In this document: one piece after another, positions 10,034 to 27,794 of the stretch | Numbering within the stretch: the stretch's first letter is position 1 | Layout: each line of letters starts with the position of its first letter | Source of the DNA: an uncultured Candidatus Sumerlaeota bacterium | Lineage (GTDB): Bacteria > CAYMEV01 | Assembly (NCBI GenBank): GCA_964389675.1 | Contig: CAYMEV010000001.1 | Span: 220,539 to 284,538, forward strand | DNA length: 64,000 nt | Direction: 5' to 3' | Notes under the pieces: generated by a model | Databases searched by the model: none | The model's input: only the letters and a program-made list of their open reading frames with translations | What the model was told of the DNA's origin: nothing | Made by a program: the position numbers and the translations under genes

Positions 10034-10048
10034 ATGCTGTATGTTTTC

Positions 10049-11499
10049 CTAAAACTGGAAATAGATAAATTCAATGCTTTTCCCCCAGTTTCCGTTAAAA
10101 TATATATATCCGAGCAGCAAAAAGTAGGATGCCCATCTCACTGATAAATTAAGGTTTGCAATCTTTTCAATTGCATATTCATTATCCCTTCCCATCCATT
10201 CTATGAATATGAATACAGCTACCAGAACAATAATGGCTGATGCCTGTCCGCTTGACTGGAAACTTGGAACTGAGAACAGTGATGCAGAGAATATCTCCCC
10301 TATGTAGTCAAATGCATGCTTTAAGCTGTCTGCCCTGAAGAATATCCAGGCAAACAATGTAAGGGCAAATGTTGAAAATATCATAAATGCCTCTTTCAGG
10401 CTTGGTATTGCTTTCCCTTTTGCTGCAATATCCAGATTTGACCTGTTTTTGTTCATTAGCATAAGGGGAAGAAAATATGCTGCATTAAGAGCCCCCCAGA
10501 CTATAAATGTCCAGTTGGCGCCATGCCAGAAACCGCTTACTATAAATATTATAAAAGTATTCCTGATCTTTTGAAAATTTCCGCCACGGCTTCCGCCAAG
10601 CGGAATATAGAGATAGTCCCTGAACCATGTCGAGAGGGAAATATGCCATCGCCTCCAGAATTCAGCAATATCACGGGAAAAATACGGGAAGGCAAAGTTC
10701 CTTATCAGATTGAACCCGAAAAGCCTTGATGTTCCTATCGCTATATCTGAATAGCCGGAAAAATCGCCGTATATCTGAAAAGCAAAGAACAAAACACCAA
10801 GGACTAGAGTACTCCCGGAATATTCTGCAGAGTTGCTGAATATCATATTTGCATATATTGCGCAATTATCCGCTATCACAATCTTTTTGAAAAGCCCCCA
10901 GAGGATCTGCCTGCACCCGTCTGATGCCTTATCATATTCAAATTTTCTCTTTTTGAAAAACTGGGGAAGCAGCCGGGTTGCTCTTTCTATCGGTCCTGCT
11001 ACAAGCTGGGGAAAGAAGCTGACGAAAGCCGCGAAGGCTATAAGATCGCTTGTAGGCTTCATTTTCCTCCTGTAGACATCAATTGAGTAGCTTAATGTCT
11101 GGAATGTGTAGAAGCTGATCCCTACAGGCAGGATTATGTTTAATGAATTGGGCTTTATTTCCATACCGAAAAAGGAGTATGTGATTATAAAATTATCCAG
11201 GAAAAAATTATAGTACTTAAAAACCCCGAGAAGGCTAATGTTCACTTTAATGCTTATCCAGAGAATGATCTTCCTCTTATACGGGGTTTTCTGGTCTTTC
11301 AGCAAAAGCCCCACACTGTAATCTATGAGGGTACTGAAGATGCTCAATGACAGAAACCTCCAGTCCCAGCATGCATAGAAAAAATAGCTTGGGATAACGA
11401 CCAGGAGATTCTGGAGCTTCAGGCTCCTTTTGTGACAAACCAGTATAGAATGAGTACTATTGGGAGAAAGACTGCAAAATCTAAAGAGTTAAATAACAA
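10049..11499 (-). pseudogene. MBOAT O-acyltransferase (AlgI/PatA-like) with a 5' frameshift
   Basis: LPVGISFYTFQ, FFPQLVAGPI, FWRRWHISL and GFWHGA motifs. The typical N-terminus MLFNSLDFAVFLPIV (TTG 11499, GGAGG RBS) is in another frame; the shift is near 11428-11431. Confidence 0.8.
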
Positions 11500-11709
11500 T
11501 TGCTGTTCCTCCGGACTGAAAGGTCCTATGCATAATTCTCACACGCTTCAATGGACAAGAAATATTAATGTACTGCCATATTAAAGTCAAATCAATTTTT
11601 TTGCAAAAGCGGATAAAATTTTCTTGACCGGATATGATTATAAACGTATCATCGCTTGAACCTGCAGGTATGGCAAGTTACCGAAAAGACTGCATGTTCT
11701 GATAATAAT

Positions 11710-14700
11710 ATGAGAACAAAGAAAAATGCTTCTAATAATATTCCTGCCCTAAAAAAGACTATCCTTTCCATTGTCCTGTTTATTATAATATTTTCCCTGG
11801 CCACATGTCTTTTTATCATGAAATCGCATCACCTGGCTGGCATCAGATTATCTGTAAAACCCGTCAGCGGAAAAGATGCTGATTACAGCGTTTTTCTTAT
11901 AAAGGGGAAAAACCAGGCAATTCCCGCAATAGATGGTGAAACCAGAAACATCGGCGCAACAGGCCTATGGATACAGATGCCATCCTCTCAAAAAGATAAT
12001 ATTGAGAATCTGTCCCTGAGGATAGGGTCTGAGATTTACAGCTATGACAGGAAAAGCTTCTACAGCGCATGGAAGGAAATTGATGCTGATGAGCTCTCAG
12101 AAGTGGAGATAATGCAGGGTATTGACGACTATAATGCAAACAGGCCAGATATGATCACCCTCATGTCCCCTGATGAAATAAAGCTCCGCTCTTCCTTTTT
12201 GCCAGGATTATCAGGGCTTATTAACTATAAGGGTGATCCGGCCCTTCTCTTTCTGCCTCTGCTGATAAGCATTTTTGCATGTATTATGGTAATTCTTATC
12301 CTTGAAAACAGGATCTCTTCTTTTATCAGCATTAATAATACCCTTTTGTTCCTGCTCCTTTATACTGTTATAGCTTCTTTTCTGCTGCCTCATGGTATAA
12401 ACAGCACTTTTGCTTCCCTGCTTAAAGATATTCTGATTATTTTTGTAATCATAGGCGCATTTGCTTATCCTGCATTTCTAAAAAGATCCGGCAGGTTCTC
12501 CTTTGTAAAAGGCTCTGAAAGATTAAAGATCCCTGACTTCATCTTTCTTCTTATACCATTGACACCAATCATGCAGTATATTTTCCTGAACCAGAAAGAC
12601 CTGTCCATTAAGGACTCCATTCTGGCCTTCATGTTTTTTGCCTTAATAAGTGCTGTATTTTGCATTGGCATACCCGTCCTGTTTTCTGCTTTTGCCTCAA
12701 AAATAATACTTATTACAGTATCTTCCGGTTTCTTATATATAATTTTTAATATGACCGCATTATCAGCAGGCAATAAGTGGGTAGGCGGCAGGGGGCAGTT
12801 TGAGATTCAGCTCGCAGTCCTCTTAATAACCATCCTGGTTCTGCTTCTGGGGAGATTACTTCCAAAAAGCCTTTTCAATACAGCAGTGATAGCATTTTTC
12901 CTCGTAAACACCCTGGCAGGGTTCCAGGCAACAGGAAGCACTTCAGATACTCCCGAAGAAATCCGGGAACCGATATTGGTAAAAGAACTGGGGGACAGAG
13001 AGCCTGTCAGGGAAAACCACATCTTTCTGCTCGTTTTTGAAGCCTATGCAAATTTTGAGACAATGCTTCACTATGGATTCGATAACAGTGACCAGCTTGC
13101 ATACCTTGAAGAGAAAGGTTTTAATATATATGACAGTAGTTACTCACTCGGCCCCTGCACCCTTACATCAATGTCCCGCGTACTTTCCATAGACAACAGC
13201 CCGGCCGGTAATCCCAGGTCTCATATTGTGGGTGGCATTGTAACACGCCTTCTGGGCAAATACGGATATAAGACATACTGCAGGACGCCTAACAATTATC
13301 TCTACAGGGGGCTTGAGCCTGGAGATATAAAATACGACTTCTACTATCCCGAATTAGTAGCCTCTGAAAACCTCTCCATAATAATCAATGCAATACTTGA
13401 GGGAGAATTCCGGCATACTGCCGGTTTTGCCGAATTTGAAACGACCAGGTACCATACCTATCTTGAAAACAAAAGATATGTTCTTAAAAACAGGCACAGG
13501 ACACCCGTATTCATGTATTCACACAGCGGTGTCCCCGGCCACAGCCAGTCATCAGGCAAATGCCTCCCTGATGAGAAGTTTCTTTACTTTGCCGGAATAA
13601 AAAAGGCGAACGAGGAAATGAAGGAGGATATAGAAACAGTAATACAAAATAACCCCGATGCAATAGTAATAGTAGCAGGGGACCACGGCCCCTATCTTAC
13701 CAAGAACTGCGCATCCCTTGTATATCACAGCATGGAGGAGATTGACAGGTATGATGTCCAGGACAGGTATGGCCAGTTCCTGGCAATAAGGTGGCCAGAA
13801 AAGGAATATTCTGAAAAATTAGATATTAGGGTCTTTCAGGACATTATGCCTGCAGTCCTTGCCTGGTTATACGATGACCCTTCACTCTTCGATACTTTAA
13901 GGATACAGGACAGGATCATATCTGACAGGAATGTGACCGGGCAGGTATATGTTGATAACGGCATGATCGTAGGAGGCTTAAACGACGGCGAACCTCTGTT
14001 TAATGATCCCTCCTGCAGGAGTCGGGCCCATGCAGACATTGTACCCGGGTCAAATGCTGTTATCAGCCTGGCAGATACCTCTCTGGAGGGAACCTATCTA
14101 TGGTCATATGATGAAGATAGACAACCATCTATTTCTGCAGATAATTCCAGCTGGGAAAGAATATCAGAAATGGTTGCTGACAGGCTGAAAGCAGGCAATA
14201 TTACAGGAGATCAGCTCCCTGAGATAGTAGGCACATTTCCAGGGCACGGCCTGTGGTATTACAGCTTTTCTCATAATTCATGGATAAATATACTCGGAAA
14301 CGCATACACATTCGGCGATTTTGCTCTGATAAAAAAGGGCGCGAATGGAAAAGAGCAAATTTTCATCTCACTGGAAGGGCTGGGGCTGTATTTGGTAGAA
14401 TCCAGCGGGCAATACAAACGAATTCTGCCGGTAACTGCAGATTCCGTGCTCAGCGGCAGATTCAGTCAGTCCGCCGACTATCTCTTCATAGGGGTCGCCG
14501 GAAAAGGAAACCTTGACGGGTTATATGTATATAATGCCGGGATCGGTGAATTCACCAGGATAGTAAAGGATATTCCCCTCCAGATGGCATCAGCTGACAT
14601 AAACGGGGACGGCTATGATGAGATTATATGCGCATTCAGGCAGAAGGGCACCTACACGGGAATGTTCTCCCCTTCTGAACCTCATAAGGGAAACGAAGAA

Positions 14701-15102
14701 GAGATAAAGAAAAATCCTGAATTTATACTCTCTGATGGCATTGCTCTAAACCACAAATTCAGCAGATTGATCGGCCTGGAATGGGAAAGGATACTCAAGG
14801 ATGTTCCCGGGGACAGGTATTTAATCTCTTCAGCAGACATTGTGTCAGGCAATGGCAAAGAGATCTTCCTTACCCACAGCAATGCAACATATTATTATGT
14901 ACATGAAAACAGGGGATGGGTCAAATTCACCAAAAACCCTCTTGAAAAGATAATTTCTGGAAAATTTACAAAAAAAGGACAGCACGATGACCTCATTGCC
15001 CAGGACAGGTCCAATAACGGCATTTTCCTTTATATGTCCTCAAGCGGCAAATGGGAACAGATAGCCCCTTCCGGGAATGTGTCAGCAATGCAGGCCTTCT
15101 GA
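11710..15102 (+). CDS. Large membrane protein with alkaline-phosphatase/sulfatase-fold (LtaS/EptA-like) domain and C-terminal FG-GAP-like region
   Basis: About 9-10 TMs; VFEAY, PCTLTS, HSGVPGH and AGDHGP motifs; ADINGDGYDEI repeat motif. Confidence 0.65.
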   Translation: MRTKKNASNNIPALKKTILSIVLFIIIFSLATCLFIMKSHHLAGIRLSVKPVSGKDADYSVFLIKGKNQAIPAIDGETRNIGATGLWIQMPSSQKDNIENLSLRIGSEIYSYDRKSFYSAWKEIDADELSEVEIMQGIDDYNANRPDMITLMSPDEIKLRSSFLPGLSGLINYKGDPALLFLPLLISIFACIMVILILENRISSFISINNTLLFLLLYTVIASFLLPHGINSTFASLLKDILIIFVIIGAFAYPAFLKRSGRFSFVKGSERLKIPDFIFLLIPLTPIMQYIFLNQKDLSIKDSILAFMFFALISAVFCIGIPVLFSAFASKIILITVSSGFLYIIFNMTALSAGNKWVGGRGQFEIQLAVLLITILVLLLGRLLPKSLFNTAVIAFFLVNTLAGFQATGSTSDTPEEIREPILVKELGDREPVRENHIFLLVFEAYANFETMLHYGFDNSDQLAYLEEKGFNIYDSSYSLGPCTLTSMSRVLSIDNSPAGNPRSHIVGGIVTRLLGKYGYKTYCRTPNNYLYRGLEPGDIKYDFYYPELVASENLSIIINAILEGEFRHTAGFAEFETTRYHTYLENKRYVLKNRHRTPVFMYSHSGVPGHSQSSGKCLPDEKFLYFAGIKKANEEMKEDIETVIQNNPDAIVIVAGDHGPYLTKNCASLVYHSMEEIDRYDVQDRYGQFLAIRWPEKEYSEKLDIRVFQDIMPAVLAWLYDDPSLFDTLRIQDRIISDRNVTGQVYVDNGMIVGGLNDGEPLFNDPSCRSRAHADIVPGSNAVISLADTSLEGTYLWSYDEDRQPSISADNSSWERISEMVADRLKAGNITGDQLPEIVGTFPGHGLWYYSFSHNSWINILGNAYTFGDFALIKKGANGKEQIFISLEGLGLYLVESSGQYKRILPVTADSVLSGRFSQSADYLFIGVAGKGNLDGLYVYNAGIGEFTRIVKDIPLQMASADINGDGYDEIICAFRQKGTYTGMFSPSEPHKGNEEEIKKNPEFILSDGIALNHKFSRLIGLEWERILKDVPGDRYLISSADIVSGNGKEIFLTHSNATYYYVHENRGWVKFTKNPLEKIISGKFTKKGQHDDLIAQDRSNNGIFLYMSSSGKWEQIAPSGNVSAMQAF

Positions 15103-15257: not shown

Positions 15258-16817
15258 ATGAAGAGAAATGCAGGGATATTATGGATTTATATAACTGCAT
15301 CAATAGCCTTGTTAATGGCTGTTTCATTTGCTTCCATACCTGTTTTAGCCGATAGCAGTAATAATGCGCCGGACAGTAATGTCCTGGAAAAAGTCCTTTC
15401 CGACTTTACAGAATATGCTGAACAGGCCAGAAAGGACTGGGGGATACCTGGAATGGCGATATCCATTGTCCAGGGAGATAAAATGATATATGCCAGGGGA
15501 TTCGGTATGAAGAAGCTTGGAGAAAGCGACCCTGTCGATGAGAATACTATCTTCCAGATAGGATCAACATCCAAGGCATTTACTGCTGCCCTCGTAGCCA
15601 TGATGATTGAAGAAGAGAAACTGGGGTGGAAGGACAAGGTCATCGATTATATTCCGGAATTCATGATGTATGACCCATGGGTAACAAGGGAATTCATGGT
15701 TTATGACCTGATGGCTCAGCACAGCGGAATGCCCGGGTATGCAGGGGATATTCTCTCCTTTGTCGGTTTTGACAGAGAGCATATTATTCACTCTATCAGG
15801 TATATAGAACCCAAAAGCAGTTTCCGTTCCGAATTTGCCTATATGAACAATCTTTTCCTGGTAGCAGGCGCACTGATAGAAAAGGTATCAGGAAAGACCT
15901 GGGAGGAAAACCTTCAGGAAAGAATTCTCAATCCCCTTCAAATGAGCAGTACAACATATACACGTGAGGGCTTTACAGGTTCTGACAATGTTGCTTATCT
16001 CCACAAGAACAAAAATGGCAAAGCAGTTCCTTTGCCTATGGACTGGAACTTTATAGACTGGGTATATACATACGGGCCGGCAGGCGGCATCAATTCCAAT
16101 GCTGTTGACATGGCAAAATGGGCAGCTTTTCAGCTGAACGGCGGCTTATATGACCAGAAACAGCTTATAAGCAGGAAAAATATGGATTATATGCATTCAC
16201 CTAAGACTATCATTGAGCAGGAAGGTTTCCCGGGAAGGAATTATTATGACCTTGCATGGGTTACCAGTGAGATTAAACCCTACCCGGCCTTTATATGGCA
16301 TACAGGAGGGACATCAGGCATAAAATCGCTTATCCAGCTTGTCCCTGAACTCGACTTAGGCTTTGTTTTCCTGACGAACATGTGTGACAATAAACTCCCT
16401 GAAGCACTCGCCAAGAGGTTTCTCGACCTTTACCTGGAGAAAACGCCCGGGGACTGGAGCGCTGAAAGCCTCAGGGAATATAAAGCCGGCCATGAGGATA
16501 AGGATATTGAAAAGCCTGAAGAGCCAAAGGCTAAACCCCTGCCTCTTGATGTTTATTCAGGAACTTACAGCAGTCCTGTCTATGGTGAAGTTAAACTGGA
16601 CATATCAGGCCAGAACCTCATTCTCACCATAGGGCCCAAAAAGGCAAAGTTTCTCCTGTCGCCATCAAACAGGGATACTTTCAGGCTGTCAATACCGGAT
16701 ATCGGAGGTGATTCAGGTTTTGTCACATTCAATATTAATGAATCCGGAACAGCTGACAGAATGGTGATAGAAGCCCTGAATGACGGCAATATAGGATGTT
16801 TTAATAGGACAGAATAG
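15258..16817 (+). CDS. Secreted serine hydrolase, beta-lactamase class C-like
   Basis: Signal peptide; STSK (SxxK), YMN and HTG motifs; C-terminal DUF3471-like domain. Confidence 0.88.
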   Translation: MKRNAGILWIYITASIALLMAVSFASIPVLADSSNNAPDSNVLEKVLSDFTEYAEQARKDWGIPGMAISIVQGDKMIYARGFGMKKLGESDPVDENTIFQIGSTSKAFTAALVAMMIEEEKLGWKDKVIDYIPEFMMYDPWVTREFMVYDLMAQHSGMPGYAGDILSFVGFDREHIIHSIRYIEPKSSFRSEFAYMNNLFLVAGALIEKVSGKTWEENLQERILNPLQMSSTTYTREGFTGSDNVAYLHKNKNGKAVPLPMDWNFIDWVYTYGPAGGINSNAVDMAKWAAFQLNGGLYDQKQLISRKNMDYMHSPKTIIEQEGFPGRNYYDLAWVTSEIKPYPAFIWHTGGTSGIKSLIQLVPELDLGFVFLTNMCDNKLPEALAKRFLDLYLEKTPGDWSAESLREYKAGHEDKDIEKPEEPKAKPLPLDVYSGTYSSPVYGEVKLDISGQNLILTIGPKKAKFLLSPSNRDTFRLSIPDIGGDSGFVTFNINESGTADRMVIEALNDGNIGCFNRTE

Positions 16818-16910: not shown

Positions 16911-18020
16911 TTACCCCAGGGACCTTTCTATGATCATTTCAGCAAATTTTGGATCCGTGCTGAAGATATAATTGCCTGCCCTGGATGGTTCAAACATCTG
17001 CGGAATGAGCCTTTTTATCTGATCCCTTCCGGCATAGGAGAGAATTTTTTCAGAAAGGCTGAGTGAATCTACCAGCTCTGCCGTCTTTTCCATAATATCG
17101 AGTATATGAGCTTCCGCTTTGCTGTTTTTGATATAATACCGGATCAGTTCAGAGAGGCAGAAACCGGACGCCAGGCCATGAGGGACTTCCAGGTTCAGCG
17201 TAACCGGGTATGAGATGGAGTGGGCGATCGCGGTCCTTGTCCGGCTGATCGATAATCCTGCCAGAGTGCCTGCCCATTGCATTTTAGCCCTGTATTCAAT
17301 ATTACCCGGCTCAGTAAGGACAGCAGGCAATGCTATTAAAGCAAGCTCCAGTGACTGCATGGCAAAAGCCAGGGATACAGGCGTCCTGTTCCTGTTCCAG
17401 ATCGATTCAAGTGCATGTGAAACAGCATCAAGGCCCGTATTGAGAGTGATCTGGCCGGGAAGTGAAAGAGTAAGATCAGGGTCGAGAAGTGCTAATGAGG
17501 GATATACATGGTCATTTGAAAAGGAGAATTTCCTGCCTGTCTCAGTATCCCAGACCGTGGCAAAAGGCGTTACTTCCGAACCAGTCCCTGCAGTTGTGGG
17601 AACAGCGACAAGATATAATCCGGGCCCGAAGTCCGAATCCTTTTTTCTGCGGAATATATCAGAAAGGGACATCATCCCGGGGTTTGCAAGCATAACAGCC
17701 AGGACCTTTGCAGTATCAATCACGCTTCCTCCGCCAATTGCCAGGACTGAGGAAAACTGCTTTTCAGACAGGCTTCTGCGGGCATTGTCAATGCTTTCAA
17801 GCTCCGGATTAGGCGTGACACTGTCATATACCGCTACTTCTGACGGCTTTAATATATCCTGAATTTTCGGTATAAGCCCCTTTGCAGAAAAGGATGGGCT
17901 GGTGACGACCAGTACATTGCCTGATCGTATATTCTCAGAGACAGAAAAAAGGATGCCCCTTCCTGATTTTATCCTTACAGGATTATAGTGGCTCCATGAA
18001 TATTGGATGCTGTCAGTCAT
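16911..18020 (-). CDS. Phosphonoacetaldehyde reductase (iron-containing ADH family)
   Basis: GGGSVIDTAK, PTTAGTGSE, AHSISY and HG motifs; overlaps the Ppd gene. Confidence 0.85.
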   Translation of the reverse strand: MTDSIQYSWSHYNPVRIKSGRGILFSVSENIRSGNVLVVTSPSFSAKGLIPKIQDILKPSEVAVYDSVTPNPELESIDNARRSLSEKQFSSVLAIGGGSVIDTAKVLAVMLANPGMMSLSDIFRRKKDSDFGPGLYLVAVPTTAGTGSEVTPFATVWDTETGRKFSFSNDHVYPSLALLDPDLTLSLPGQITLNTGLDAVSHALESIWNRNRTPVSLAFAMQSLELALIALPAVLTEPGNIEYRAKMQWAGTLAGLSISRTRTAIAHSISYPVTLNLEVPHGLASGFCLSELIRYYIKNSKAEAHILDIMEKTAELVDSLSLSEKILSYAGRDQIKRLIPQMFEPSRAGNYIFSTDPKFAEMIIERSLG

Positions 18021-19137
18021 TTGCCTTTTTCATAAACATTCTCTTGTTCTCTTCAGGGGTGCTTTCAGGCCTTGAAAGGTCTTCTCTTGAACCGGGTTTT
18101 ATAATTATTTCAAACAGGACAGGCCCGCTGGTTTTATCTATCTCCTGCATGGCATTTTTAATGCTTTCTTCACAGCATGCACTGAAATATCCTGAATAGC
18201 CTATCGATTCAGAAAGGCCCTTAAAATCAATATTGCCTGCAACAGTGGGCTGTCCGCCTACTGATTCATGCGAGCTGTTATTAAGAAGTACATGGACAAG
18301 GTTTCCTGGCTTAAGGTCAGCTATAACAGACATCGAACCCAGGTGCATCAGGATAGAGCCGTCGCCGTCCAGGCAGATGACCCTCTTATCCTGCTTAAAA
18401 AGAGCTATACCAAGTGCAATGGAAGACGTATGCCCCATGCTTCCAACGGTAAGAAAATCACACATTGCTTCATCCCTCTCCAGGCGCAGTTCATAAAGCT
18501 CTCTTGATGTCTTGCCTGTTGTAGATATAAGAAGGTCATCAGGCTTTGAACATTTCAGGACTGCCCTTATTGCTGTTTCACGGAACATATTGCTTTTTAC
18601 GCCGGCTATCTTTGCGGATTTATAACTGCTGAAGGTGTTTTTCCTGATGATAATGGCTGATGGAGAATTTGTTTCACCGATCCTGGCAACGGCTTTTTTT
18701 ATTATCTCAGCATAATCTGAATCAGGGCCCATGATCTCATATGGTATTTCAAGTGTTTCAAAAAGCCTTAAAGTGATCCTGCCCTGCTTTCTGTGCTGGG
18801 GTTCGTCCTTTATTCCCGGTTCTCCCCTCCAGCCGACGATAAGAAGCAGAGGTATCCTGTAGACTTCCGGGTCAGTAAGCGAAGCAAGAGGATTGACAGC
18901 ATTTCCGATGCCTGAATTCTGAAGGTAAACAACCCCGGCCCTGCCGGTAGCAAGATGGTATCCCGCTGCAAGCGCAACAGCATTTCCTTCATTTGCAGTT
19001 ATAATATGGGACCTTTTATCCTGCTTATCATCGAGGCATGCGCAGAAGGCCTTAAGAAGAGAATCTGGCACACCGCAGAAAAAATCAAAGCCCCTTTTTC
19101 TCAGCTCGTCAAGAAAATCTCCTGGACAGATCATCAT
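18013..19137 (-). CDS. aepY: Phosphonopyruvate decarboxylase
   Basis: [19 protein letters not shown], and ThDP motif DGDG…NN. Confidence 0.95.
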
Positions 19138-20435
19138 TTACCTCCGGGTATGAGCTCCAGTATCTCTTTTATCGACATCAACTGACCCTCTGACTCCAAA
19201 GCCCTGCAGTTTTCAAGGATAGACCTGGCGGTGCTGATCATGGCAGGGTAAGCGCTTCTGATCAGCTGGTTGGCGTATATGACTATATTTACACCGTGTT
19301 TTATCAGTTCATCTTCCGTTATTGTATTGTAGCTTGTCGGCACAACAACAAGCGGTTTTTTATTCCCAAGCCCATTATACCTCCTGCAGAACTCAATAAC
19401 TTCATCAGGCTTTTTGCTCCTGCTGTGGATCATGATCCCGTCAACTCCGGCATTCAGGTAGCTTTCTGCCCTCTTTATGGCATCATCATGCCCCTTTCCC
19501 AGTATCAGGCTTTCTATCCTTGCAATTATCATAAAATCGTCCGTTGCCTGCACCTTCTTGCCTTCCTTTATCTTATGGCAGAAATTCTCTATGCTGTCCT
19601 GTGTCTGTTCTACCTCAGTACCGAATAGGGAATTCTTCTTAAGGCCGGTCTTATCTTCTATTATTACTGCAGAAACACCCAGCCTTTCAAGGGTCTTTAC
19701 GGTAAAGACGAAATGCTCCGTTCTCCCCCCTGTATCACCGTCAAATATGATAGGCTTGGTGGTAACCTCAAGCACATCATTAAGGGTCCTTATCCTGGAT
19801 GTCAGGTCAACTGCTTCAATGTCAGGCTTTCCCTTGGCGGTTGAATCAGTAAGGCTGCTTGCCCACATTCCGTCAAATTCCCTCCTGCCATTCTGTGTAT
19901 CAATATGCATATTTTCAACTATGAGCCCGGTAAGCCCGTTATGTATCTCCATTATCCTTACAATGGGCTTTACCTGTATAAGCCTCCGCAATGTCCTCCG
20001 CCTGAGGTCCGGCGTTGTGCCTATCTCCTGCAGTGCCCTGTTAAGCTGTGTTGATGAAATGCCCTTGGTGTAAGGAACCTCCACAAGCTTGCCGTTCCAT
20101 TCTGCAAGGGCTTCTATAACCCGCTGGCGGGTTTCTTTCTGAACGCCCTCTTTCCAGTCATCGCCATGGACTACATAATCCGGCCTGAGCTTTTTAAGGT
20201 TGGGAACATAATCAAGTGTGGTCTGTGCAACAACATCCCTGACACCCTTGATATTTTCCACTATTTCCTTTCTCTGCTCATAGGTCATATATGGCAGGCG
20301 CTTATAGCTTGCTATTGCTTCGTCAGTCAGAAGGCCTATTGTAACCTCCCCATATTCCAGCGCTTTCTTAATGATGTTCAGATGCCCTGGATGAATAAGG
20401 TCTGCACTCATACCCACATATACCCTCTTTTTCAT
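19134..20435 (-). CDS. aepX: Cytidylyltransferase-phosphoenolpyruvate mutase fusion
   Basis: N-terminal DLIHPGH (HxGH) domain; PepM signature [10 protein letters not shown] (EDK-X5-NS); ATG 20435 has an AAGGAG RBS. Confidence 0.95.
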
Positions 20436-20508
20436 ATCAGTACTCCTTTTTTGCACTGCCGGACAGCACTAATGGCCTCAAATCTATAAATAACCGTGAA
20501 AGCTAAAT

Positions 20509-21795
20509 TCATTCCGTTTTTTCCTGGCCTCCGGCAGTCCTCTCAATAAAATCAGCTCCTCTTTTTCCGCTTTCACCCGGGAAGCACCATATCCTGTCTC
20601 TGTATTCCTCAATATATCCCTTATATGAATCATCTGCCCTGACCTTCTCAATGATTTCACTGATTTTTGGGCATTCCTCCTCTTTAAGGATATATCCAAT
20701 CTTTCCATCCTTTATAAGCTTCATCAGTGTACTGCTTTTTGACTCCAGGCTGTTCATATCGTATTTTCGGCAATCAACCTCAAAGTCAGTGACAATTACC
20801 GGCCTGGAAAACAAAAACAGATAATCAAATATTATACCTGAAAAGTCAGATATCATGATATCTGACTTTTGCATTGCTTCAAGGCCGTTTCTCTTATTAT
20901 CCCAGGCAAGGTTTTCTTTTTCGGAGTATTTGTCCTCAAATTTCCTGATCATGTCAGGCTCTGTCTTAAAGCTTTGCGGATGAGGCCTGAGTATCAGGCT
21001 GCAGTCCTTATCAGTGAGGATATCAAGCAGAGCACTGCCGAACCTTTTCAGAAAACCCTTCTCCCCCCAGCTCGGGGCAAGCAGTATGGTCGTCCTGCCT
21101 TCCTTTTCATCCTTTTGTTCAGGCATTTCCCGGCTCATGAGGTCAAGGTATGTACTTCCTATAATTTCTACATCCTTTTCAGGCAGATTGCGGTTTTTTT
21201 CCAATTCCCTGATGACTGACAGCTGGTGCTGACCATTTACCAGAACAGAATCAAAATAATCAACGCCGTAGGGGGCATAGGTAGAGGTATCCTCGAGTCC
21301 GTGAACTATGTGGCAGTAATGCTTTACTTTTTTGCTCCTTTTCAGCTGCAGTACATTCAGGCCCGGTGTCGTCATTATTACCATGTCGGCCTCAAGCCTG
21401 TTCAAGAAATAGAAAGCTTCATAGCCTCTGCCTATATATACCTTTTCAATATTCTCAAGATCGCTTTTCAGTCCGGGATCATCCTCTTCGCTTGCAAAAT
21501 AGCTGCATCTTATATTCCGTCTGTTCATTTCCTCGATAATGGGGAGGAATACATTCCAGTAATGAGCCATCTCTGAATAGAAAACAATACCGAATTTCCT
21601 GTTAAGGTCCTTCTTCTTGGTCTTGAACACATAGTTCAGCCTCTCATAGACGAAATTCTTGATCAGGTAGAACAGGGTCGCTGCCAGGGCGATTACAGCC
21701 CCGACGATCATGCTTCCGCTCCCGGGGTCAAGGTATGCATAGGCGGGCAGCGGTATCAGAAAAACAAGGATAAGGATCAGTAATATTTTAGACAT
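20509..21795 (-). CDS. CDP-glycerol:glycerophosphate transferase family protein (TagB/TagF-like)
   Basis: LLAPSW, RPHP and ISDFSGIIFDY motifs; N-terminal leader, YLDPGSG, then a TM helix. Confidence 0.8.
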   Translation of the reverse strand: MSKILLILILVFLIPLPAYAYLDPGSGSMIVGAVIALAATLFYLIKNFVYERLNYVFKTKKKDLNRKFGIVFYSEMAHYWNVFLPIIEEMNRRNIRCSYFASEEDDPGLKSDLENIEKVYIGRGYEAFYFLNRLEADMVIMTTPGLNVLQLKRSKKVKHYCHIVHGLEDTSTYAPYGVDYFDSVLVNGQHQLSVIRELEKNRNLPEKDVEIIGSTYLDLMSREMPEQKDEKEGRTTILLAPSWGEKGFLKRFGSALLDILTDKDCSLILRPHPQSFKTEPDMIRKFEDKYSEKENLAWDNKRNGLEAMQKSDIMISDFSGIIFDYLFLFSRPVIVTDFEVDCRKYDMNSLESKSSTLMKLIKDGKIGYILKEEECPKISEIIEKVRADDSYKGYIEEYRDRIWCFPGESGKRGADFIERTAGGQEKTE

Positions 21796-22510
21796 TGCAA
21801 AAACTCCGATTAATTAAAGTTTTATTCTTTAGCTTTTCATTTTCAAAATAATCATAGCCGATATGTTTCAGATAATTGAATATATTATTGCAGGTCCAGT
21901 ATATAAGAAGGCCTGAAGGAGAATTATAAAGCAGTACAAAAAAGAGAAGGGATATGAAATACATCTGCAGCCTCTCATTGGCTGTGAGGTTTTTTCCGTA
22001 TACATGGCCTGCAAGAAGGCTGAAGGCTGTCATAATGAACGGGAGGACATTGATGCTTAAACTGCTGATGCTTATAAGGGAATCAGGCTTTCCAAGGTCA
22101 CTGAAGAACATGAACGATACACCCTTGATAGGTTCATAGCTTGAAAGCAGGTGGTATGCGGCAATAAAGAAGGGTACCTGCAGAAGCAGTCCCATTGACG
22201 ACCTTAATGAGTAGACAGGGTGATAGTTGTTCTGCCTGTAAAGGGTCTTTATATAAAGGTGAAGCTCATAGCCTTTATATACCTTCTTCAGGTCATTAAT
22301 GGCCGGGGCCATCTTTCGCCTTATATCACGCTCTTTGACCTGCATCTTATTTGCAAGGTGGTACAGGGGAAGAGTAACTGCACTGATTATCAGGCTCACT
22401 ATAATTATTGATACCCCGTAACTGCCGGTTATTGAGAATGTAAACTCGATGATCCAGGTTATTATAAATTCTATCGGGTATATAAATATCAAGTATAGAA
22501 CTGATAACAT
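21788..22510 (-). CDS. YidC/Oxa1 family paralogue, short form
   Basis: YGVSII…LPL, coiled-coil hairpin, LLQVPFF, DLGKPD, PSGLLIYW; overlaps the next gene by 8 nt. Confidence 0.82.
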   Translation of the reverse strand: MLSVLYLIFIYPIEFIITWIIEFTFSITGSYGVSIIIVSLIISAVTLPLYHLANKMQVKERDIRRKMAPAINDLKKVYKGYELHLYIKTLYRQNNYHPVYSLRSSMGLLLQVPFFIAAYHLLSSYEPIKGVSFMFFSDLGKPDSLISISSLSINVLPFIMTAFSLLAGHVYGKNLTANERLQMYFISLLFFVLLYNSPSGLLIYWTCNNIFNYLKHIGYDYFENEKLKNKTLINRSFCNV

Positions 22511-22845: not shown

Positions 22846-24096
22846 TTAATCGCCGCTGGAGGACTCAATATTCGGATTCTCGATCCTTCCCATGAATAAA
22901 ATGCTCTTTGTGGAATTGTCAGCAATCAGAAAGATAAAGGGGCGGTCAGCAAGAAAACGCTTTTTTTCCATAGGCGGCGGGGCACTTGTCCTTTTGATCT
23001 CTACGGAGGTCACACCTGCCGCCTCAGTACCCTCTTCATTTACCTCTACAAATGCCTTGTGTCTCACATTGCTGATATACAGGTTTTCCCCGCCGGCTGC
23101 AGCTTTATCATACATTCCTGTAAAATCAGCCTTATTCGAGTCATATGCATCAGTCATGCCCATAGACTGCAGTACAGCATTCAGCGTCACCCCATAGGCG
23201 AGTTTAAATCTGGGTATGGATACATCCACCCTGCAGTACCTCATGCATTGCTCCATATCCCTGAAAAAATCCCCTGAAATAAGATCCTGAGGCTTTTTCA
23301 ATATGCCTGTGCCCTTTTCAGAGGGCAGAACAATAAACATTGACATCTCCCGCTCTGAATAAGGAAGCTCAAGTACCTTGCATCCCCTGTAATCCGCATA
23401 CCTGAGCTTTCCGCTCCTGTTCATCATATCGGCTTTAACAGCTTCACCGGAATTCAGATGAAAATCAGCCTTTTCTGTCCTTCCCGGATCAAATTCAGCA
23501 TCCCAGGAAGCCTTAAAATACACGGCATTTACAAGCACCATCACTGTCAGTGGATCCAGCGCACCTGGAGGTATCATATCCATTATAAGGCCATTTGTGT
23601 TTTCACTGACCCAGTCATTTATCATCCTTCTTACTTTTTCAGGATCCTTGAAATTTACCGGAAAGATATTGACACTGTAATATTTTTTCAAAAGTTCCTT
23701 AAATTCACTGTAGAAAGAATATCCCTCCTGGGGCCATATTGAATTGGCTATCATAAGCCTGATCTTCCCCTCATGCCCAAAACGCCCGAGTTTTTGCATA
23801 ATATCGCTCAGTGCCCTATGAACCTCATTACCTGGGAGTGATAACTTAAGCACATCCTTCATCTGGGTGGCAGTCTCTCCCCCTGCGCCGCCGTATGTCA
23901 TGGCAAGTGCAGATGATATGCTGTAGGGGGATATGAACAGGTTTCCTTCTTTCCTGCATAACTCCCCGAATATATCAACAGCAAAAGCATTGTTATCATC
24001 AACAGCTGTCGCACTTTTGTCCCCGGCATCCAGGACAGGGCATAACAGGACCGGCATCAGCAAAAGCAAAAAAAGAAATATTCTGGAAATAAGCAT
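22846..24096 (-). CDS. Secreted serpin
   Basis: Signal peptide; ISPYSI, VNAVYFKASW, hinge EEGTEAAG, and FLADRPFIFLI motifs. Confidence 0.95.
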   Translation of the reverse strand: MLISRIFLFLLLLMPVLLCPVLDAGDKSATAVDDNNAFAVDIFGELCRKEGNLFISPYSISSALAMTYGGAGGETATQMKDVLKLSLPGNEVHRALSDIMQKLGRFGHEGKIRLMIANSIWPQEGYSFYSEFKELLKKYYSVNIFPVNFKDPEKVRRMINDWVSENTNGLIMDMIPPGALDPLTVMVLVNAVYFKASWDAEFDPGRTEKADFHLNSGEAVKADMMNRSGKLRYADYRGCKVLELPYSEREMSMFIVLPSEKGTGILKKPQDLISGDFFRDMEQCMRYCRVDVSIPRFKLAYGVTLNAVLQSMGMTDAYDSNKADFTGMYDKAAAGGENLYISNVRHKAFVEVNEEGTEAAGVTSVEIKRTSAPPPMEKKRFLADRPFIFLIADNSTKSILFMGRIENPNIESSSGD

Positions 24097-24139: not shown

Positions 24140-24622
24140 TCAGCGATTGCCCCTGTTACCCCTGTACCGCCAGCAGTTTTTCCTGCAGAACATTTTCTTT
24201 TCCCTTCCCCCGCACACAATACGCTTGGAACCGCATTCAGGGCATAAGCAGTCGCCTTTCAATATCTTTTCAAAGTTCTCATATGTTTCCTTCCAGGTAC
24301 TGCCACAGTCCAGGCACTGGACAAGGCATATATTCCTTGTATAGTTGCCGCCCTCTATCCTGATTGTCTTTCCATTTATAAGGCTGTCTGCTATCTTTGC
24401 GCGGGCTGTACCGAGTATTCTCTGAAAGGTCTGTCTCGAAACCTCCATCCTGTTCGCACAAAGTTCATTGTCCAGTTCCTCAAGGTCCTTTAATCTTACA
24501 GCCTCAAGCTCCTCAATATGCAGGACATTCTCCTCAAGTTCGGAAATATCCACATCATAGGGGCCAAAAACCTGCAGAGAGGGAATGAATTCCACCCTTC
24601 TTGGTTTGGTCGGCCTTACCAC
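24140..24622 (-). CDS. DUF134/UPF0251 putative DNA-binding protein with C-terminal Zn ribbon
   Basis: MVRP…EELEAVRLKD…MEVSRQTF…IEGG, followed by two CxxC pairs. Confidence 0.88.
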   Translation of the reverse strand: MVRPTKPRRVEFIPSLQVFGPYDVDISELEENVLHIEELEAVRLKDLEELDNELCANRMEVSRQTFQRILGTARAKIADSLINGKTIRIEGGNYTRNICLVQCLDCGSTWKETYENFEKILKGDCLCPECGSKRIVCGGREKKMFCRKNCWRYRGNRGNR

Positions 24623-24681
24623 ATTAAAACCCCCTGTATTTTATTATTCTAATTATATTATATATCATTGATCATCAAATT

Positions 24682-24730
24682 AAAATAGCAGGCAGCAGAT
24701 TATTATTTTCTGCTGCTGCCTGTCTATTTT
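24682..24730. terminator. Putative intrinsic terminator after the DUF5320 gene
   Basis: AAAATAG-CAGGCAGCAG…CTGCTGCCTG-TCTATTTT inverted repeat. Confidence 0.6.
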
Positions 24731-24742
24731 ATGAAGAATCGG

Positions 24743-25066
24743 CTATTTGCCTTCTTTTTCAAGACTGCTGAGACGGTTTTTGATATCCTTGAGCTCTTTT
24801 TCAAGAGCTTCAGCCTGTTTTGTCAGATATTCTTTTTCATCTACTGGCACAATAGGCTCATAACCCTGCATATAGGGGTCATATCCTGGATATCCTCCCA
24901 TACCCCAGCGGAAATACCTTCTTCTGTATCCCCTTCCTCTGCCTCCGAAACCCCCGTAAGGGTACGGATTTGCATATCCAGGGACACTGTATCCGGCGCA
25001 ATAACCAGCTCTTCTGCCTGTCATGGGACCTGCTCCCATAGGACCGGTTCTATCTCCGCCTGGCAT
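24743..25066 (-). CDS. DUF5320-like Gly/Arg-rich protein
   Basis: MPGGDRTGPMGAGPMTGRRAGYC start and C-terminal coiled coil; AGGAGG RBS before ATG 25066. Confidence 0.85.
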   Translation of the reverse strand: MPGGDRTGPMGAGPMTGRRAGYCAGYSVPGYANPYPYGGFGGRGRGYRRRYFRWGMGGYPGYDPYMQGYEPIVPVDEKEYLTKQAEALEKELKDIKNRLSSLEKEGK

Positions 25067-25109
25067 AATACGCACCTCCTTTCTTTTTTTGTTTATAATG
25101 CATAATTTA

Positions 25110-25319
25110 TTATCCTCTTATCATTTTTGTCCCGCATTTAGGGCATTGGACCTCATAGCATGGCACACCCTGCTGGTGTATCATCTTTTCCCCGCACTTA
25201 GGGCAGACGCAGTATCCTCCGGGGCCTGCTCCGGGATTGTTTCCCTGGCCCTGGCCTCTTCCTGTACCGCGGCCTTTTCCCATTCCTCTTCCTGGCCTTG
25301 AATTATCTGAATTAAACAT
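25110..25319 (-). CDS. Small Gly-rich double Zn-ribbon protein
   Basis: GPGGYCVCPKCG…PC…CPKCG; GGAGGTG RBS. Confidence 0.8.
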   Translation of the reverse strand: MFNSDNSRPGRGMGKGRGTGRGQGQGNNPGAGPGGYCVCPKCGEKMIHQQGVPCYEVQCPKCGTKMIRG

Positions 25320-25344
25320 AATTTACTTCACCTCCCTGTTTCAT

Positions 25345-25725
25345 TTATTCCTCATGGTCACAGCTGTTCTTGTCCAGGCCGTATCCTTTACCTGCCCCTG
25401 GACTGCAAAGGCTGTCGCCTCCGGCAAGTGTGCCTTCTTTCAGCTTGTCAACAATATCACTGATCTCTCCCTCAACCCCGAGTACCGTCTTCACTCCAAA
25501 TGCGTTAAACATTGAAATTGCCTTATTGCCCATGCCTCCGCATACTATCATTTCTACACCCTGTGAGCGGAGAAATTGAGGTATAGCCCCGGGCGCATGG
25601 CCTGGATTAGCAAGCAGATCCTGGCTTTTCAGTTCATTGTTCTCAATATCAATGACTGTAAAATTAGGGCACCTTCCAAAATGAGCTGATACCATGCTGC
25701 CATCCGTCGATATCGCGATTTTCAT
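25345..25725 (-). CDS. NifB/NifX-family (FeMo-cofactor-binding fold) protein
   Basis: MKIAIS…HFGRC…CGGMG; AGGAG RBS before ATG 25725. Confidence 0.88.
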   Translation of the reverse strand: MKIAISTDGSMVSAHFGRCPNFTVIDIENNELKSQDLLANPGHAPGAIPQFLRSQGVEMIVCGGMGNKAISMFNAFGVKTVLGVEGEISDIVDKLKEGTLAGGDSLCSPGAGKGYGLDKNSCDHEE

Positions 25726-25726
25726 G

Positions 25727-26599
25727 TCAGTTCTCCTTTTTTTTATTTTCAAAATAGACTAAAATCCTGTTCCATATATTTTTTATTTCTTCAGCAACTC
25801 CCTTAATTTCAGCCCTGACAGGTGTTTTGTATTCCTGCAGGGCCCTTACGATCTCTTTATTAAAGGGTATTTTTCCTATGATCTCAATATCCCTTTCCCT
25901 GCAGAATTCTTCTATCTGACGTGTTATGTCCCTGTTCAGGTCATATTTATTAATGCAGACAAATGACTTTATCCCAAAATGCCCTGCTACCTCCAGCACC
26001 CTTTTTAAGTCACTCAAGCCTGACAGTGTCGGCTCTGTAACAGCCACTACAGCATCTGTACCGGTAATGGATGCGATAACCACACAGCCTATGCCGGGCG
26101 AACCGTCAATAAGCATGAACTTTTCTCCACTGCTGAAAGCCTCAGCATTCTGGCGCAGTTTGGTAACAAGCCTTCCCGAGCCTTCAGCTCCTACATCAAG
26201 CAGAGCATGGGAAAATATCCCGCCATCAGTTTCTGATATGGTAGTAATGCCTGTCTTAATGCTTTTCAGCTTTATTGCCTTATTGGGGCACACAAGGACA
26301 CATGCTCCGCATCCCTCGCATTTATAGGGCATTATACTGATATCTTCGCTTATTGCGTCAAACTCGCATACTGATACGCAAAGGCCGCATTTAATACACA
26401 TTTCTTCATTAATGACAGCCTCCTTGGCTCCGTAAAAATCCTCCTGCCTGATCTTTTTTCCGGATAAAAGCAGGTGAAGATCAGGGGCATCCACATCGCA
26501 GTCAGCGATTATCCTGTCCCTGGCTATCTCGCTGATTGATGAAACGAGAGTGCTTTTGCCTGTTCCGCCCTTACCGCTTATAAATGCTATTTTCTTCAT
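25727..26599 (-). CDS. MinD-like P-loop ATPase with inserted 2x[4Fe-4S] domain
   Basis: SGKGGTGKS, DCDV, two CxxCxxCxxxC motifs, TEPT. Confidence 0.9.
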   Translation of the reverse strand: MKKIAFISGKGGTGKSTLVSSISEIARDRIIADCDVDAPDLHLLLSGKKIRQEDFYGAKEAVINEEMCIKCGLCVSVCEFDAISEDISIMPYKCEGCGACVLVCPNKAIKLKSIKTGITTISETDGGIFSHALLDVGAEGSGRLVTKLRQNAEAFSSGEKFMLIDGSPGIGCVVIASITGTDAVVAVTEPTLSGLSDLKRVLEVAGHFGIKSFVCINKYDLNRDITRQIEEFCRERDIEIIGKIPFNKEIVRALQEYKTPVRAEIKGVAEEIKNIWNRILVYFENKKKEN

Positions 26600-27441
26600 T
26601 TTTCTGCCCTCTCTTTCAATGCTTTATGCAGATCGATGAACTTCTCCCTTATTTCATCATCAGCCTCTACAGGCAGGATGCCGTTTGAATAATCAGCGGC
26701 TATCCGTTCTGAAAAAGGAATTTTCATGATTATCTCTATATTTTCTTTTCTGCAGTATTCATCTATTATCACGATATTATCCTGAGCCTTGTTTATGATA
26801 ACGCTGAACCTTTTATTCAGCTTTCGTAAAAGCTGAACTGCAATATTGAGGTCATACAGCCCGAAAGGGGTAGGTTCTGTGACCAGTATGCAGTAGTCAA
26901 CACCTTCAAGTGTCTCAACAACACCGCATCCTGCTCCGGGTGCACAGTCAATAATTACCTCTGCATCATCCCTGTAATAATTTTTAATCTTCTTGAGTAT
27001 AGGAACACTGACAGGCTCTCCCACATCAAGCCTCCCCTGAACAAAACTCTTATCAGCATTTGCCTCTATGACACCTATTGCCCTGTATTTCCTTGTAATT
27101 GCCTTTCTGGGACAGGCTATCATGCATGCACCGCACGAATGGCAAAGCTTCTCAAATACTATGACACCTTCATTCATGACCGCAAGTGCATTAAACTGGC
27201 AGGCCTCACTGCATTTCCCGCATGAGTCGCATAGAGAGCTGTCTATTGAAGGGTTGAAAACAGTAACATCAAAGCTCTTGTCTATTACAGGCCTGACAAA
27301 AAGATAGCCGTTAGGCTCTTCCACATCGCAGTCTATATATTGCGAAACACCTGCTGTTGCTGCCATACTGAGAGCCACCGTAGTCTTGCCAGTCCCTCCT
27401 TTCCCGCTTAATACGGCAATTCTCACAGGTTCTTCCCCCAT
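26596..27441 (-). CDS. Second MinD-like P-loop ATPase with inserted 2x[4Fe-4S] domain
   Basis: SGKGGTGKT, DCDVEEPN, two ferredoxin motifs, TEPTPFG. Confidence 0.9.
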   Translation of the reverse strand: MGEEPVRIAVLSGKGGTGKTTVALSMAATAGVSQYIDCDVEEPNGYLFVRPVIDKSFDVTVFNPSIDSSLCDSCGKCSEACQFNALAVMNEGVIVFEKLCHSCGACMIACPRKAITRKYRAIGVIEANADKSFVQGRLDVGEPVSVPILKKIKNYYRDDAEVIIDCAPGAGCGVVETLEGVDYCILVTEPTPFGLYDLNIAVQLLRKLNKRFSVIINKAQDNIVIIDEYCRKENIEIIMKIPFSERIAADYSNGILPVEADDEIREKFIDLHKALKERAEK

Positions 27442-27794
27442 TTCATACCGGCATGGCTTTCACCAATCTCACTAAGCCTGCTTAAAGAACCGTTACTGAA
27501 CTCTTTGATATTTTCAGAGACCGTTTTCATCACACCCTTATAGACCGCAACCTTTGAGGAGTTCAGCACCTGCGAAGCATTGGGGCCAAGATTCCCTGTT
27601 ATCAGGGCTTCTATACCCTTATTTATCACAAGCTGGCCGGCAGCCACTCCTGCACCGCCGCCCCCCGGGCTGTTTTCCAGAAACTCAGCATCTCCTGATT
27701 CTGTATCCGCTATACAGAAAAAAGCACATCTTCCAAAGCGTGGGTCCAGCATGCTTTCCAGTGTATTTCCCTGAGATGTTATGCATATTTTCAT
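27423..27794 (-). CDS. NifB/NifX-family protein (orange-protein-like)
   Basis: MKICITS…DPRFGRC…GAGVAA…TGNLGP. Confidence 0.88.
   Translation of the reverse strand: MKICITSQGNTLESMLDPRFGRCAFFCIADTESGDAEFLENSPGGGGAGVAAGQLVINKGIEALITGNLGPNASQVLNSSKVAVYKGVMKTVSENIKEFSNGSLSRLSEIGESHAGMKWGKNL

Follow-up and report, generated by a model that had tools for sequence, protein, structure and literature searches.

A YidC-fold protein without the groove charge, paired with a TagF-like transferase in a predicted phosphonate operon of a Candidatus Sumerlaeota bacterium

Introduction

The YidC2 of Bacillus halodurans (3WO6/3WO7) and the YidC of Escherichia coli (3WVF, 6AL2) share a core of five transmembrane (TM) helices with a cytoplasmic hairpin and the motifs QxP and PSGLxxYW. 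The positively charged residue in the groove of the family is described in the abstract of Chen et al. 2022 (PMC8920935) as 'strictly conserved in all homologs', and its charge, according to the same paper, serves to keep the groove hydrated. The same core, hairpin and motifs are found in the protein analysed here, P0001 (hereafter Y), which is encoded in the genome of an uncultured Candidatus Sumerlaeota bacterium (assembly GCA_964389675.1, contig CAYMEV010000001.1, positions 220,539 to 284,538 of the forward strand; this whole stretch of 64,000 nucleotides is called the window). Unlike YidC2/SpoIIIJ-type proteins and E. coli YidC, the subfamily of Y has Asn, Ser or Thr, and Y itself Ser, at the place of the groove Arg or Lys. 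It also differs from canonical YidC in extra conserved polar residues on TM3 and TM5, in a new Arg at the start of TM2 and in a highly conserved hairpin predicted to bind a TagF-like enzyme. The Y gene lies outside the rnpA-yidC context, and the Y domain is in most relatives fused to an LtaS/PbgA-like enzyme. The two partner proteins are called T (TagF-like) and S (LtaS/PbgA-like) below.

Lipid-linked phospho-polyol intermediates are moved to the outer face of the membrane by TarGH (ABC), LtaA (MFS) and TacF (MOP), whose folds are unrelated to that of Y, and we know of no YidC-fold protein that acts as an exporter of the teichoic-acid or glycolipid type. LtaS, LtaP, PbgA (YejM) and EptA share with the long forms of S a polytopic anchor, an outer-face domain and invariant Asp, Thr and Asp-His residues. 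S differs from these enzymes in its association, as a partner or by fusion, with a YidC-like domain and a TagF-like enzyme, and the S of the window is in addition too diverged for the sulfatase-type family PF00884 and has extra N- and C-terminal parts. YidC/Oxa1 proteins are described as scramblases with a groove that carries lipid head groups (Li et al., PNAS 2024, PMC11047089), E. coli YidC scrambling phospholipids in vitro, and the role proposed below for Y would use that capacity. In that paper scrambling is a side activity on ordinary phospholipids, whereas Y would be dedicated to a phosphonyl lipid and would work within an enzyme complex.

The described phosphonate (Pnt) clusters (Rice et al. 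2019, PMC6697681; Li et al. 2022, PMC8942020) share with the window a fusion of a PF01467 domain to phosphoenolpyruvate (PEP) mutase (Ppm), a phosphonopyruvate decarboxylase (Ppd) and a PhpC-like iron-containing alcohol dehydrogenase (Fe-ADH). The main texts of both papers have no mention of YidC and do not describe a transfer machinery of the T/Y/S kind; TagF is absent from the main text of PMC6697681 and glycerophosphotransferase from that of PMC8942020, in which a sulfatase is mentioned once, for Selenomonas clusters. Among the matches listed in full-text literature searches there was no YidC-sulfatase fusion and no link of YidC to LtaS or TagF, although supplementary neighbourhood tables might list such genes.

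Results

A YidC-fold protein with serine at the groove centre

The gene of Y and the three elements of it on which the analysis turns are as follows.

21788..22510, minus strand: Y, the stand-alone YidC-like protein P0001 (240 residues, open reading frame translation)
22382..22384, minus strand: codon AGT of Ser43, at the site of the canonical groove Arg/Lys (structure-sequence alignments and reading of the codon)
22202..22204, minus strand: codon AGG of Arg103, at the cytoplasmic start of TM2, eight residues before the groove Gln111 (column counts and model helix 98-124)
22220..22354, minus strand: cytoplasmic helical hairpin of Y, residues 53-97 (helices 31-77 and 80-93), the predicted docking surface for T

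The frame starts with ATG, has a Shine-Dalgarno-like AAGGGG stretch 5' of the start and is separated from the upstream serpin gene by 335 nucleotides. An earlier note on this DNA had proposed a YidC-family protein of 240 residues without a periplasmic domain; the frame is real and lies on the minus strand, which the note left unstated, and every sequence string quoted there occurs in the translation. P0001 passes the family thresholds of PF02096 (89.5 bits, cut-off 35) and TIGR03592 (95.5 bits, cut-off 84.3), and its best NCBIfam YidC equivalog, NF002355, gives 89.3 bits against a cut-off of 891. The AlphaFold2 model, built with 51 relatives, has a mean predicted local distance difference test (pLDDT) of 93 and a predicted template-modelling score (pTM) of 0.84, with helices at residues 31-77, 80-93, 98-124, 156-174, 177-193 and 199-238. 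The model shows an N-terminal helix, a TM1 that continues into a cytoplasmic helical hairpin, and TM2 to TM5, and so has the five-TM core with a hairpin between TM1 and TM2 that defines the YidC family, and the large periplasmic domain is absent. All of the top eight Foldseek matches in the PDB are YidC proteins, the best being 3wo6, the B. halodurans YidC2 (E 4.2e-9, TM-score on the query 0.67). The motifs QVP (residues 111-113) and PSGLLIYW (198-205) are kept.

The groove position falls within residues 32-49, which read GVSIIIVSLIISAVTLPL. HMMER alignments to solved YidC proteins place Ser43, in the string LIISAV, opposite the Arg of 3wo6, the Arg of Thermotoga maritima YidC (5y83, 6y86) and the Arg of E. 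coli YidC (5mg3_C, string 'tfivrgimypl'); the number R366 for the E. coli residue is taken from PMC8920935 and not from the alignment. The replacement of the groove Arg by Ser, earlier read by eye, is thus upheld, and P0001 has no positive residue at the groove centre. The absence extends to the subfamily. When 357 distinct domains of the subfamily were aligned with 28 canonical cores in MAFFT, the groove column of the subfamily had Asn in 178, Ser in 101, Thr in 63, Gln in nine, Cys in three, Gly in two and Arg in one, against Lys in 21, Arg in five and Gln in two of the canonical cores. Lys and Arg are therefore missing from 356 of the 357 subfamily domains and from 2 of the 28 canonical ones, and are found in none of the 144 subfamily representatives at 50% identity. 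These counts exclude chance as the source of Ser43. The two canonical cores with Gln (L099 of genome G009 and L101 of genome G015) indicate either that the charge is not universal even outside the subfamily or that both are misaligned.

On its groove helices the subfamily shows newly acquired polar residues that scarcely vary: S39, T161, Y171, Y195 and N208 are kept in 99% of the domains and N164 in 97%, Q111 stands at 86%, and W205 is conserved along with the polar residues. A compensating Arg or Lys in the groove had been named as an observation that would overturn the earlier reading. For the centre of the groove there is none, as no other Lys or Arg is conserved inside TM1-TM5 across the 357 domains (the highest count, at position 120, is 31). 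At the mouth there may be one: position 103 is basic in 342 domains (Arg in 294, Lys in 48) and in none of the 28 canonical cores. Helix register would put Arg103 not in the centre of the groove but at its cytoplasmic mouth. Conservation of the hairpin is far stronger in the subfamily than among canonical YidCs, and E60, R61, K75, G80, E82, Y91, R92 and Y96 are strongly conserved.

Y is not the only YidC of its genome. The assembly (58 contigs, 93.8% complete) has two matches to PF02096, the second being a YidC of 535 residues on another contig (C16), with Lys at the groove position, in a neighbourhood that reads rnpA-yidD-yidC-jag-mnmE (gene names assigned by eye on reading the translations). 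P0001 and this canonical copy share 23.5% identity, and the gene of P0001, flanked by the serpin and TagF-like genes, lies outside the housekeeping rnpA-yidD-yidC-jag neighbourhood. The canonical gene sought by the earlier note is thus present, the refuting case of a sole yidC named there falls away, and its statement that Y stands apart from the rpmH-rnpA-yidC context holds. Each sampled genome has a canonical YidC, and among the 30 other genomes searched the Arg-less paralogue was found only in a congener.

A word-indexed search returned 130 homologues of P0001, and a profile search of 1.84 billion representatives 13769 matches at E<=0.001, of which the 1659 at E<=1e-30 were taken as the subfamily; these are clusters at 50% identity, and most members have about 900 residues. 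When the listed proteins, the open reading frames of 79 genome loci and 30 canonical YidCs (the organism's own and those of 29 other genomes) were pooled and scored with the subfamily profile, every pooled member reached at least 164 bits and no canonical YidC exceeded 137, so that the two ranges did not overlap; P0001 was itself in the profile, which makes its own score circular. A tree of 143 rows (70 forms of at most 262 residues, 45 long forms drawn at random from 198, and 28 canonical cores, with 94 intermediate-length forms left out) was obtained by a quick IQ-TREE search, with support values from the Shimodaira-Hasegawa-like approximate likelihood-ratio test (SH-aLRT) only. The split between canonical and subfamily sequences has a support of 100. 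P0001 falls within a clade (support 82) whose 34 members are stand-alone forms of 215-240 residues. Its nearest relative is the copy in the congeneric genome, which is 74% identical and lies in the same five-gene operon. Short forms are also scattered within the long-form clade, several of them cut by contig ends.

The 79 genome loci belong to Spirochaetota (53), Bacillota (21), Actinomycetota (two), Chloroflexota (one) and bacteria without a phylum (two), and the nearest relatives of the Y/T cassette of the window are found in Spirochaetota and Bacillota. Only one of the 30 relative genomes compared is of the same genus and the rest are no closer than the same domain; the lineage of the window seems to be sparsely sampled.

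The partners T and S

The genes of the two partners are these.

20509..21795, minus strand: T, TagF-like phosphotransferase (428 residues, PF04464)
11656..15102, plus strand: S, the membrane protein P0267 (1148 residues, found with a hidden Markov model (HMM) of S modules)

Y heads an operon of five genes in which T is next and three phosphonate genes follow, and the start of T overlaps the end of Y by 8 nucleotides. T belongs to PF04464 by score (39.7 bits, cut-off 22.1), the match being confined to profile positions 151-299, and a profile of 44 T homologues matches Cps3D (8qoy, E 2.6e-9) and TarL (8va1, E 6.4e-4); NCBIfam gave no match for T. At its N-terminus T has a hydrophobic helix ending in AYA, then the motif YxDPGxGS (residues 21-28) and then a TM helix followed by basic residues. 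The motif directly before the TM helix is invariant in all 44 homologues, most of which begin with it. The arrangement indicates an anchor with its N-terminus outside and a short acidic N-tail. An extra hydrophobic helix before the motif occurs in the T of the window and in those of L003, L006 and L078, and may be a cleaved signal peptide.

The linkage of T to Y is tight. T is present in 50 of the 79 genome loci, adjacent and on the same strand in 46, and in 57 of 80 metagenome loci, adjacent and on the same strand in 55; where at least 3 kb was available on both sides of Y, the counts are 22 of 32 and 19 of 21. None of the 30 canonical yidC loci (3.5 kb each) contains T.

S is the second recurrent partner. 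In most related loci Y forms the first ~220 residues of an open reading frame of ~850-1000 codons, the rest of which is polytopic and carries a weak to moderate match to PF00884. Such Y-S fusions are often arranged in tandem, each S paralogue with its own Y, as in L054 with five and in L011 (Treponema putidum) with four. The model of a T. putidum Y-S protein (pLDDT 86.7) retrieves with Foldseek the full-length PbgA structure 6xlp, LtaS (2w5r/4uor), LtaP and YidC, and phmmer found no match of the long-form S part among PDB sequences. The 46 long forms compared all have Asp493, Thr530 and Asp771-His772, residues that we take to be the metal and nucleophile set of the LtaS type.

The three modules are permuted between loci. 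Beside the Y-S fusion of ~850-1000 residues with T alongside, there are loci in which a short Y is followed by a T-S fusion of ~1040 residues (L019, twice, L058 and L163) and loci in which genes for Ppm, Ppd and a nucleotidyltransferase-aminotransferase fusion are followed by Y, T, S and S as separate genes (L127, and L125 likewise). The window represents a fourth arrangement, with Y overlapping T in a phosphonate operon and S separate and convergent. Short Y with T recurs in L121-L130, L133, L138 and L187. In a T-S fusion one chain unites a cytoplasmic, nucleotide-dependent transferase with one acting on the outer face, which implies a transfer step across the membrane between them.

The S of the window came to light with an HMM built from eight S modules of short-Y loci; this HMM matches P0267 with 585 bits at residues 218-786. 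The matched stretch is the polytopic and alkaline-phosphatase-like module associated with Y and T in other loci. With the S encoded as a gene of its own after Y and T in L127, P0267 shares 37% identity (E 6e-114), and with the S part of the L058 T-S fusion 34% (E 9e-103). It has no match to PF00884 even at E<=1, while the L127 proteins match that family with 33.6 and 31 bits and L058 with 24.1 bits; it is through these homologues that P0267 may be placed in the alkaline-phosphatase superfamily. An S partner is thus encoded near Y in the window without being fused to it. Sixteen PF00884 matches occur elsewhere in the genome and none on the stretch of the window. Queries built from long-form S had missed P0267, the protein query giving no match in the genome and an HMM of 60 modules only a partial match of 31 bits; a reading of the window as Y plus T only was dropped when the short-Y HMM found P0267. 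Outside the shared module, P0267 has ~200 N-terminal residues (1-217) with one TM helix and presumably an outer-face domain, and ~360 C-terminal residues (787-1148), of which 977-993 match FG-GAP weakly. Neither extension is found in the S modules of L127 and L058.

The predicted complex of Y and T

Y and T were predicted as a complex from alignments made for this analysis (51 rows for Y, 44 for T). The interface score ipSAE was 0.76, 0.77 and 0.76 in three runs, against 0.00 for the best of three controls; the mark used for this score is reached by 58 of 80 solved complexes and by 2 of 110 mismatched pairs, counts that apply here only approximately given the alignments used. The pLDDT of the partners was 76-77, and at least 75% of the contacts were shared between runs. 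The confident interface comprises, on the Y side, residues 70-101, in the second helix of the hairpin and at the beginning of TM2, and on the T side residues 33-46, 147-150, 175-179, 202-204 and 341-348, which include or adjoin invariant T residues. The cytoplasmic hairpin of Y is thus predicted to dock on the catalytic domain of T, and Arg103 is next to residues of Y that contact T in the prediction (98, 99 and 101). We know of no solved complex of a YidC with a TagF that the model could have memorised. At the predicted contact, the stand-alone clade has the hairpin sequence KGYELHLY, in which H84, L85 and Y86 do not vary, and the fused forms of Y have KGDERxM; the difference may reflect co-variation with T.

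The predicted phosphonate operon and its surroundings

Downstream of T the operon continues with three genes.

19134..20456, minus strand: cytidylyltransferase-PEP mutase fusion (440 residues; PF01467, 62.6 bits, and PF13714, 183 bits)
18013..19137, minus strand: thiamine pyrophosphate (TPP) enzyme, predicted phosphonopyruvate decarboxylase (374 residues; PF02775 and PF02776)
16911..18020, minus strand: iron-containing alcohol dehydrogenase, the last gene of the operon (369 residues; PF00465, 146.6 bits, and PF25137)

The fusion protein scores 409 bits against TIGR02320 (cut-off 319.55). The TPP enzyme probably acts as phosphonopyruvate decarboxylase, a name suggested by its position after Ppm; its homologues accompany Ppm in 8 of the 79 genome and 12 of the 80 metagenome loci, and all 20 of these loci also have T. 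The Fe-ADH is predicted to reduce phosphonoacetaldehyde to 2-hydroxyethylphosphonate (HEP), a substrate assignment made by likeness, and the operon is without an aminotransferase. PhpC-type Fe-ADHs convert phosphonoacetaldehyde to HEP (PMC8942020), and the PF01467 domain that is fused to Ppm in Fom1 makes cytidine monophosphate (CMP)-HEP (PMC6697681). The predicted product of the operon is therefore CMP-HEP, which would be the donor for T, and the PF01467-Ppm fusion, Ppd and Fe-ADH together predict a CMP-activated surface phosphonate. The GC content of the operon, 43-48%, is like that of its flanks and shows no compositional sign of recent transfer.

The following genes surround the operon.

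22846..24096, minus strand: full-length bacterial serpin with a hydrophobic N-terminus, directly upstream of the operon (PF00079, 397 bits)
24140..27794, minus strand: a run of small genes, including DUF134 and a Nitro_FeMo-Co domain protein
15258..16817, plus strand: beta-lactamase-family gene between S and the end of the operon (PF00144, Pfam)
9155..11347, minus strand: MBOAT-family acyltransferase gene and a gene of 292 codons without a Pfam match, divergent from the S gene
5465..7164, minus strand: pair of ABC-2 membrane protein and ABC ATPase

The S gene is convergent with the operon and lies 1.8 kb from its end, the beta-lactamase-family gene standing between. The congener locus (L003) also has a PF00144 gene (2589..3695), within 4 kb of Y. 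The MBOAT gene near S suggests a wider envelope-modification locus. ABC-2/ATPase pairs of the kind found farther on export teichoic acids and O-antigens. Read by eye, the run of small genes encodes two Gly/Arg-rich or Cys-pair mini-proteins, two ParA/MinD-like proteins with ferredoxin-type Cys clusters and a second FeMo-co-like protein.

Discussion

The separate clade, the linkage to T, the fusions with S and the predicted complex make it probable that Y is a permanent member, together with T and S, of a relay of head groups to the surface, rather than a general insertase. The description of Y as a specialised paralogue, given in the earlier note, is well supported by the full support of the split from canonical YidCs, the non-overlapping profile scores, the canonical copy elsewhere in the genome and the tight association with the TagF-like gene; it had missed that the loss of the Arg is family-wide, as well as the S fusions, the phosphonate operon and Arg103. 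In the relay as we envisage it, Y would be a stand-alone YidC-fold module serving as the fixed membrane subunit of three parts. The operon would make HEP and activate it as CMP-HEP, and T, sitting at the mouth of the Y groove, would move the phosphonyl group onto an acceptor linked to a membrane lipid at the cytoplasmic face. The polar groove (S39, S43, Q111, N154, T161, S164, Y171, Y195 and N208), with Arg103 at its mouth, would let the anionic head group cross outward to the outer leaflet by a scramblase action of the YidC type. P0267, the LtaS/PbgA-like S, would then hand the head group to a glycan or lipid of the cell surface.

For the specific step, transport of a lipid-linked phosphonyl head group from T to S through the uncharged polar groove, the grounds are the two-sided logic of the T-S fusions, the constancy of Y as the only other partner, the conservation of the groove and the scrambling by E. 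coli YidC, and we give it just short of an even chance. The wider claim, that the YidC fold here serves as a dedicated translocase of lipid-linked phospho(no) head groups and so as a new class of flippase, is tentative and to our minds somewhat less likely than not; Y would on that reading be docked to a TagF-like transferase and feed an LtaS-like one, the cargo in this organism being HEP. With its hydroxyl and its phosphonyl group, HEP could on the same reading even be joined into a poly(phosphonate) resembling teichoic acid. Two mechanisms had been offered in the earlier note, a private insertase and the movement of a lipid-linked intermediate. The fusion logic makes the latter the likelier of the two.

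Several observations weigh against transport through the groove. The anchor of T, with its N-terminus outside and a short acidic N-tail, resembles what we take to be the substrates that depend on YidC only. The lipid-linked intermediate and its flipping are postulated, and the score of the predicted complex expresses the confidence of the model and is no measurement of binding. T is missing from 12 of the 53 loci with room on both sides, and the T-less loci that were inspected sit within ordinary glycan gene clusters. The S of the window belongs to a separate, convergent transcription unit, and its orthologue in the congener, 63% identical, is on another contig. Y itself departs from the consensus of its subfamily at N54 (Glu or Asp in 352 of 357 domains) and at S164 (Asn in 97%). 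The ABC-2 pair of the window could be an alternative exporter of the T product. The canonical, Arg-bearing YidC already scrambles lipids (PMC11047089), and loss of the charge is therefore unnecessary for scrambling. According to Chen et al. 2022 (PMC8920935), the insertase function of the E. coli protein tolerates the loss of the charge if residue 517 is hydrophilic or aromatic. Trp205 of P0001 aligns with this residue, and with it and the many polar residues of its groove P0001 could have retained protein insertion.

The last points lead to the view of Y as a private insertase or assembly chaperone for its own partners, which would translocate the short N-tail of T with its YxDPGxGS motif, the groove being tuned to that tail, and help to fold the polytopic S. 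The invariant motif before the TM helix of T and the basic residues after it, as expected of an anchor with an outside N-terminus, speak for this view, as do the fully YidC-like fold, the conservation of W205 and the polar groove residues, and the finding that the charge is dispensable for insertion when the groove is hydrophilic (PMC8920935). We nevertheless consider it unlikely, as a catalyst needs neither a one-to-one fusion to every S paralogue nor a conserved surface whose predicted contact is with the folded catalytic domain of T and not with its anchor, a canonical YidC is already at hand in each sampled genome, and it would remain unexplained why T-S fusions, with halves on opposite faces of the membrane, keep Y next door. 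Y might instead be a passive scaffold that only tethers T, and S where present, while the groove takes part in neither transport nor insertion. The predicted interface is indeed formed by the cytoplasmic hairpin and not by the groove, and Y-S fusions and Y-T gene pairs would suit a structural subunit; still, the polar groove residues S39, T161, Y171, Y195, N208 and Q111 are among the most conserved of the subfamily, which is not expected of an idle groove, and T has a membrane anchor of its own, so that we regard a mere scaffold as quite improbable.

Two further explanations carry much less weight. Many bacteria have two YidCs, and since P0001 passes the Pfam and TIGRFAM thresholds for the family it could be an ordinary second insertase, like the YidC2/SpoIIIJ-like pairs of Gram-positives, in an incidental phosphonate neighbourhood. 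This is very improbable in view of an association with T that is kept across Spirochaetota, Bacillota, Actinomycetota and Chloroflexota, the common fusions with S, the separate clade, the low identity to the organism's own canonical YidC and the restriction of the paralogue to the congener among the genomes searched. The prevalence of members of ~900 residues, and the finding that some short forms (L135, L153, L016 and L037) are truncated at a contig end or have an overlapping S frame after them, would allow Y to be a decaying remnant of a Y-S fusion that has lost its S half. P0001, however, lies in the clade of 34 stand-alone forms, its frame is intact and its model confident, the congener keeps a copy in the same five-gene operon, and short Y with T recurs in the loci named above, all of which makes decay hardly credible.

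On sequence evidence, the Arg-less subfamily contradicts the universal groove charge stated in PMC8920935. New in the window are a stand-alone Y in a predicted hydroxyethylphosphonate operon and an S that is diverged and unlinked; new as well are the conserved Arg103 and the interface predicted between the hairpin and T. A natural subfamily of more than 1000 clusters without the charge is a ready-made experiment on the role of the groove residue. The permuted fusions tie the YidC fold to a two-sided relay, with one enzyme inside the membrane and one outside. The stand-alone Y and T pair of the window, the smallest version of the system, would be convenient to express and reconstitute. The relay makes it testable whether insertase grooves move lipids in cells, and by which route nucleotide-activated phosphonates and small head groups reach the surface of spirochaetes and gut clostridia, a delivery step that is left unassigned in the descriptions of phosphonate clusters drawn on here (PMC6697681, PMC8942020).

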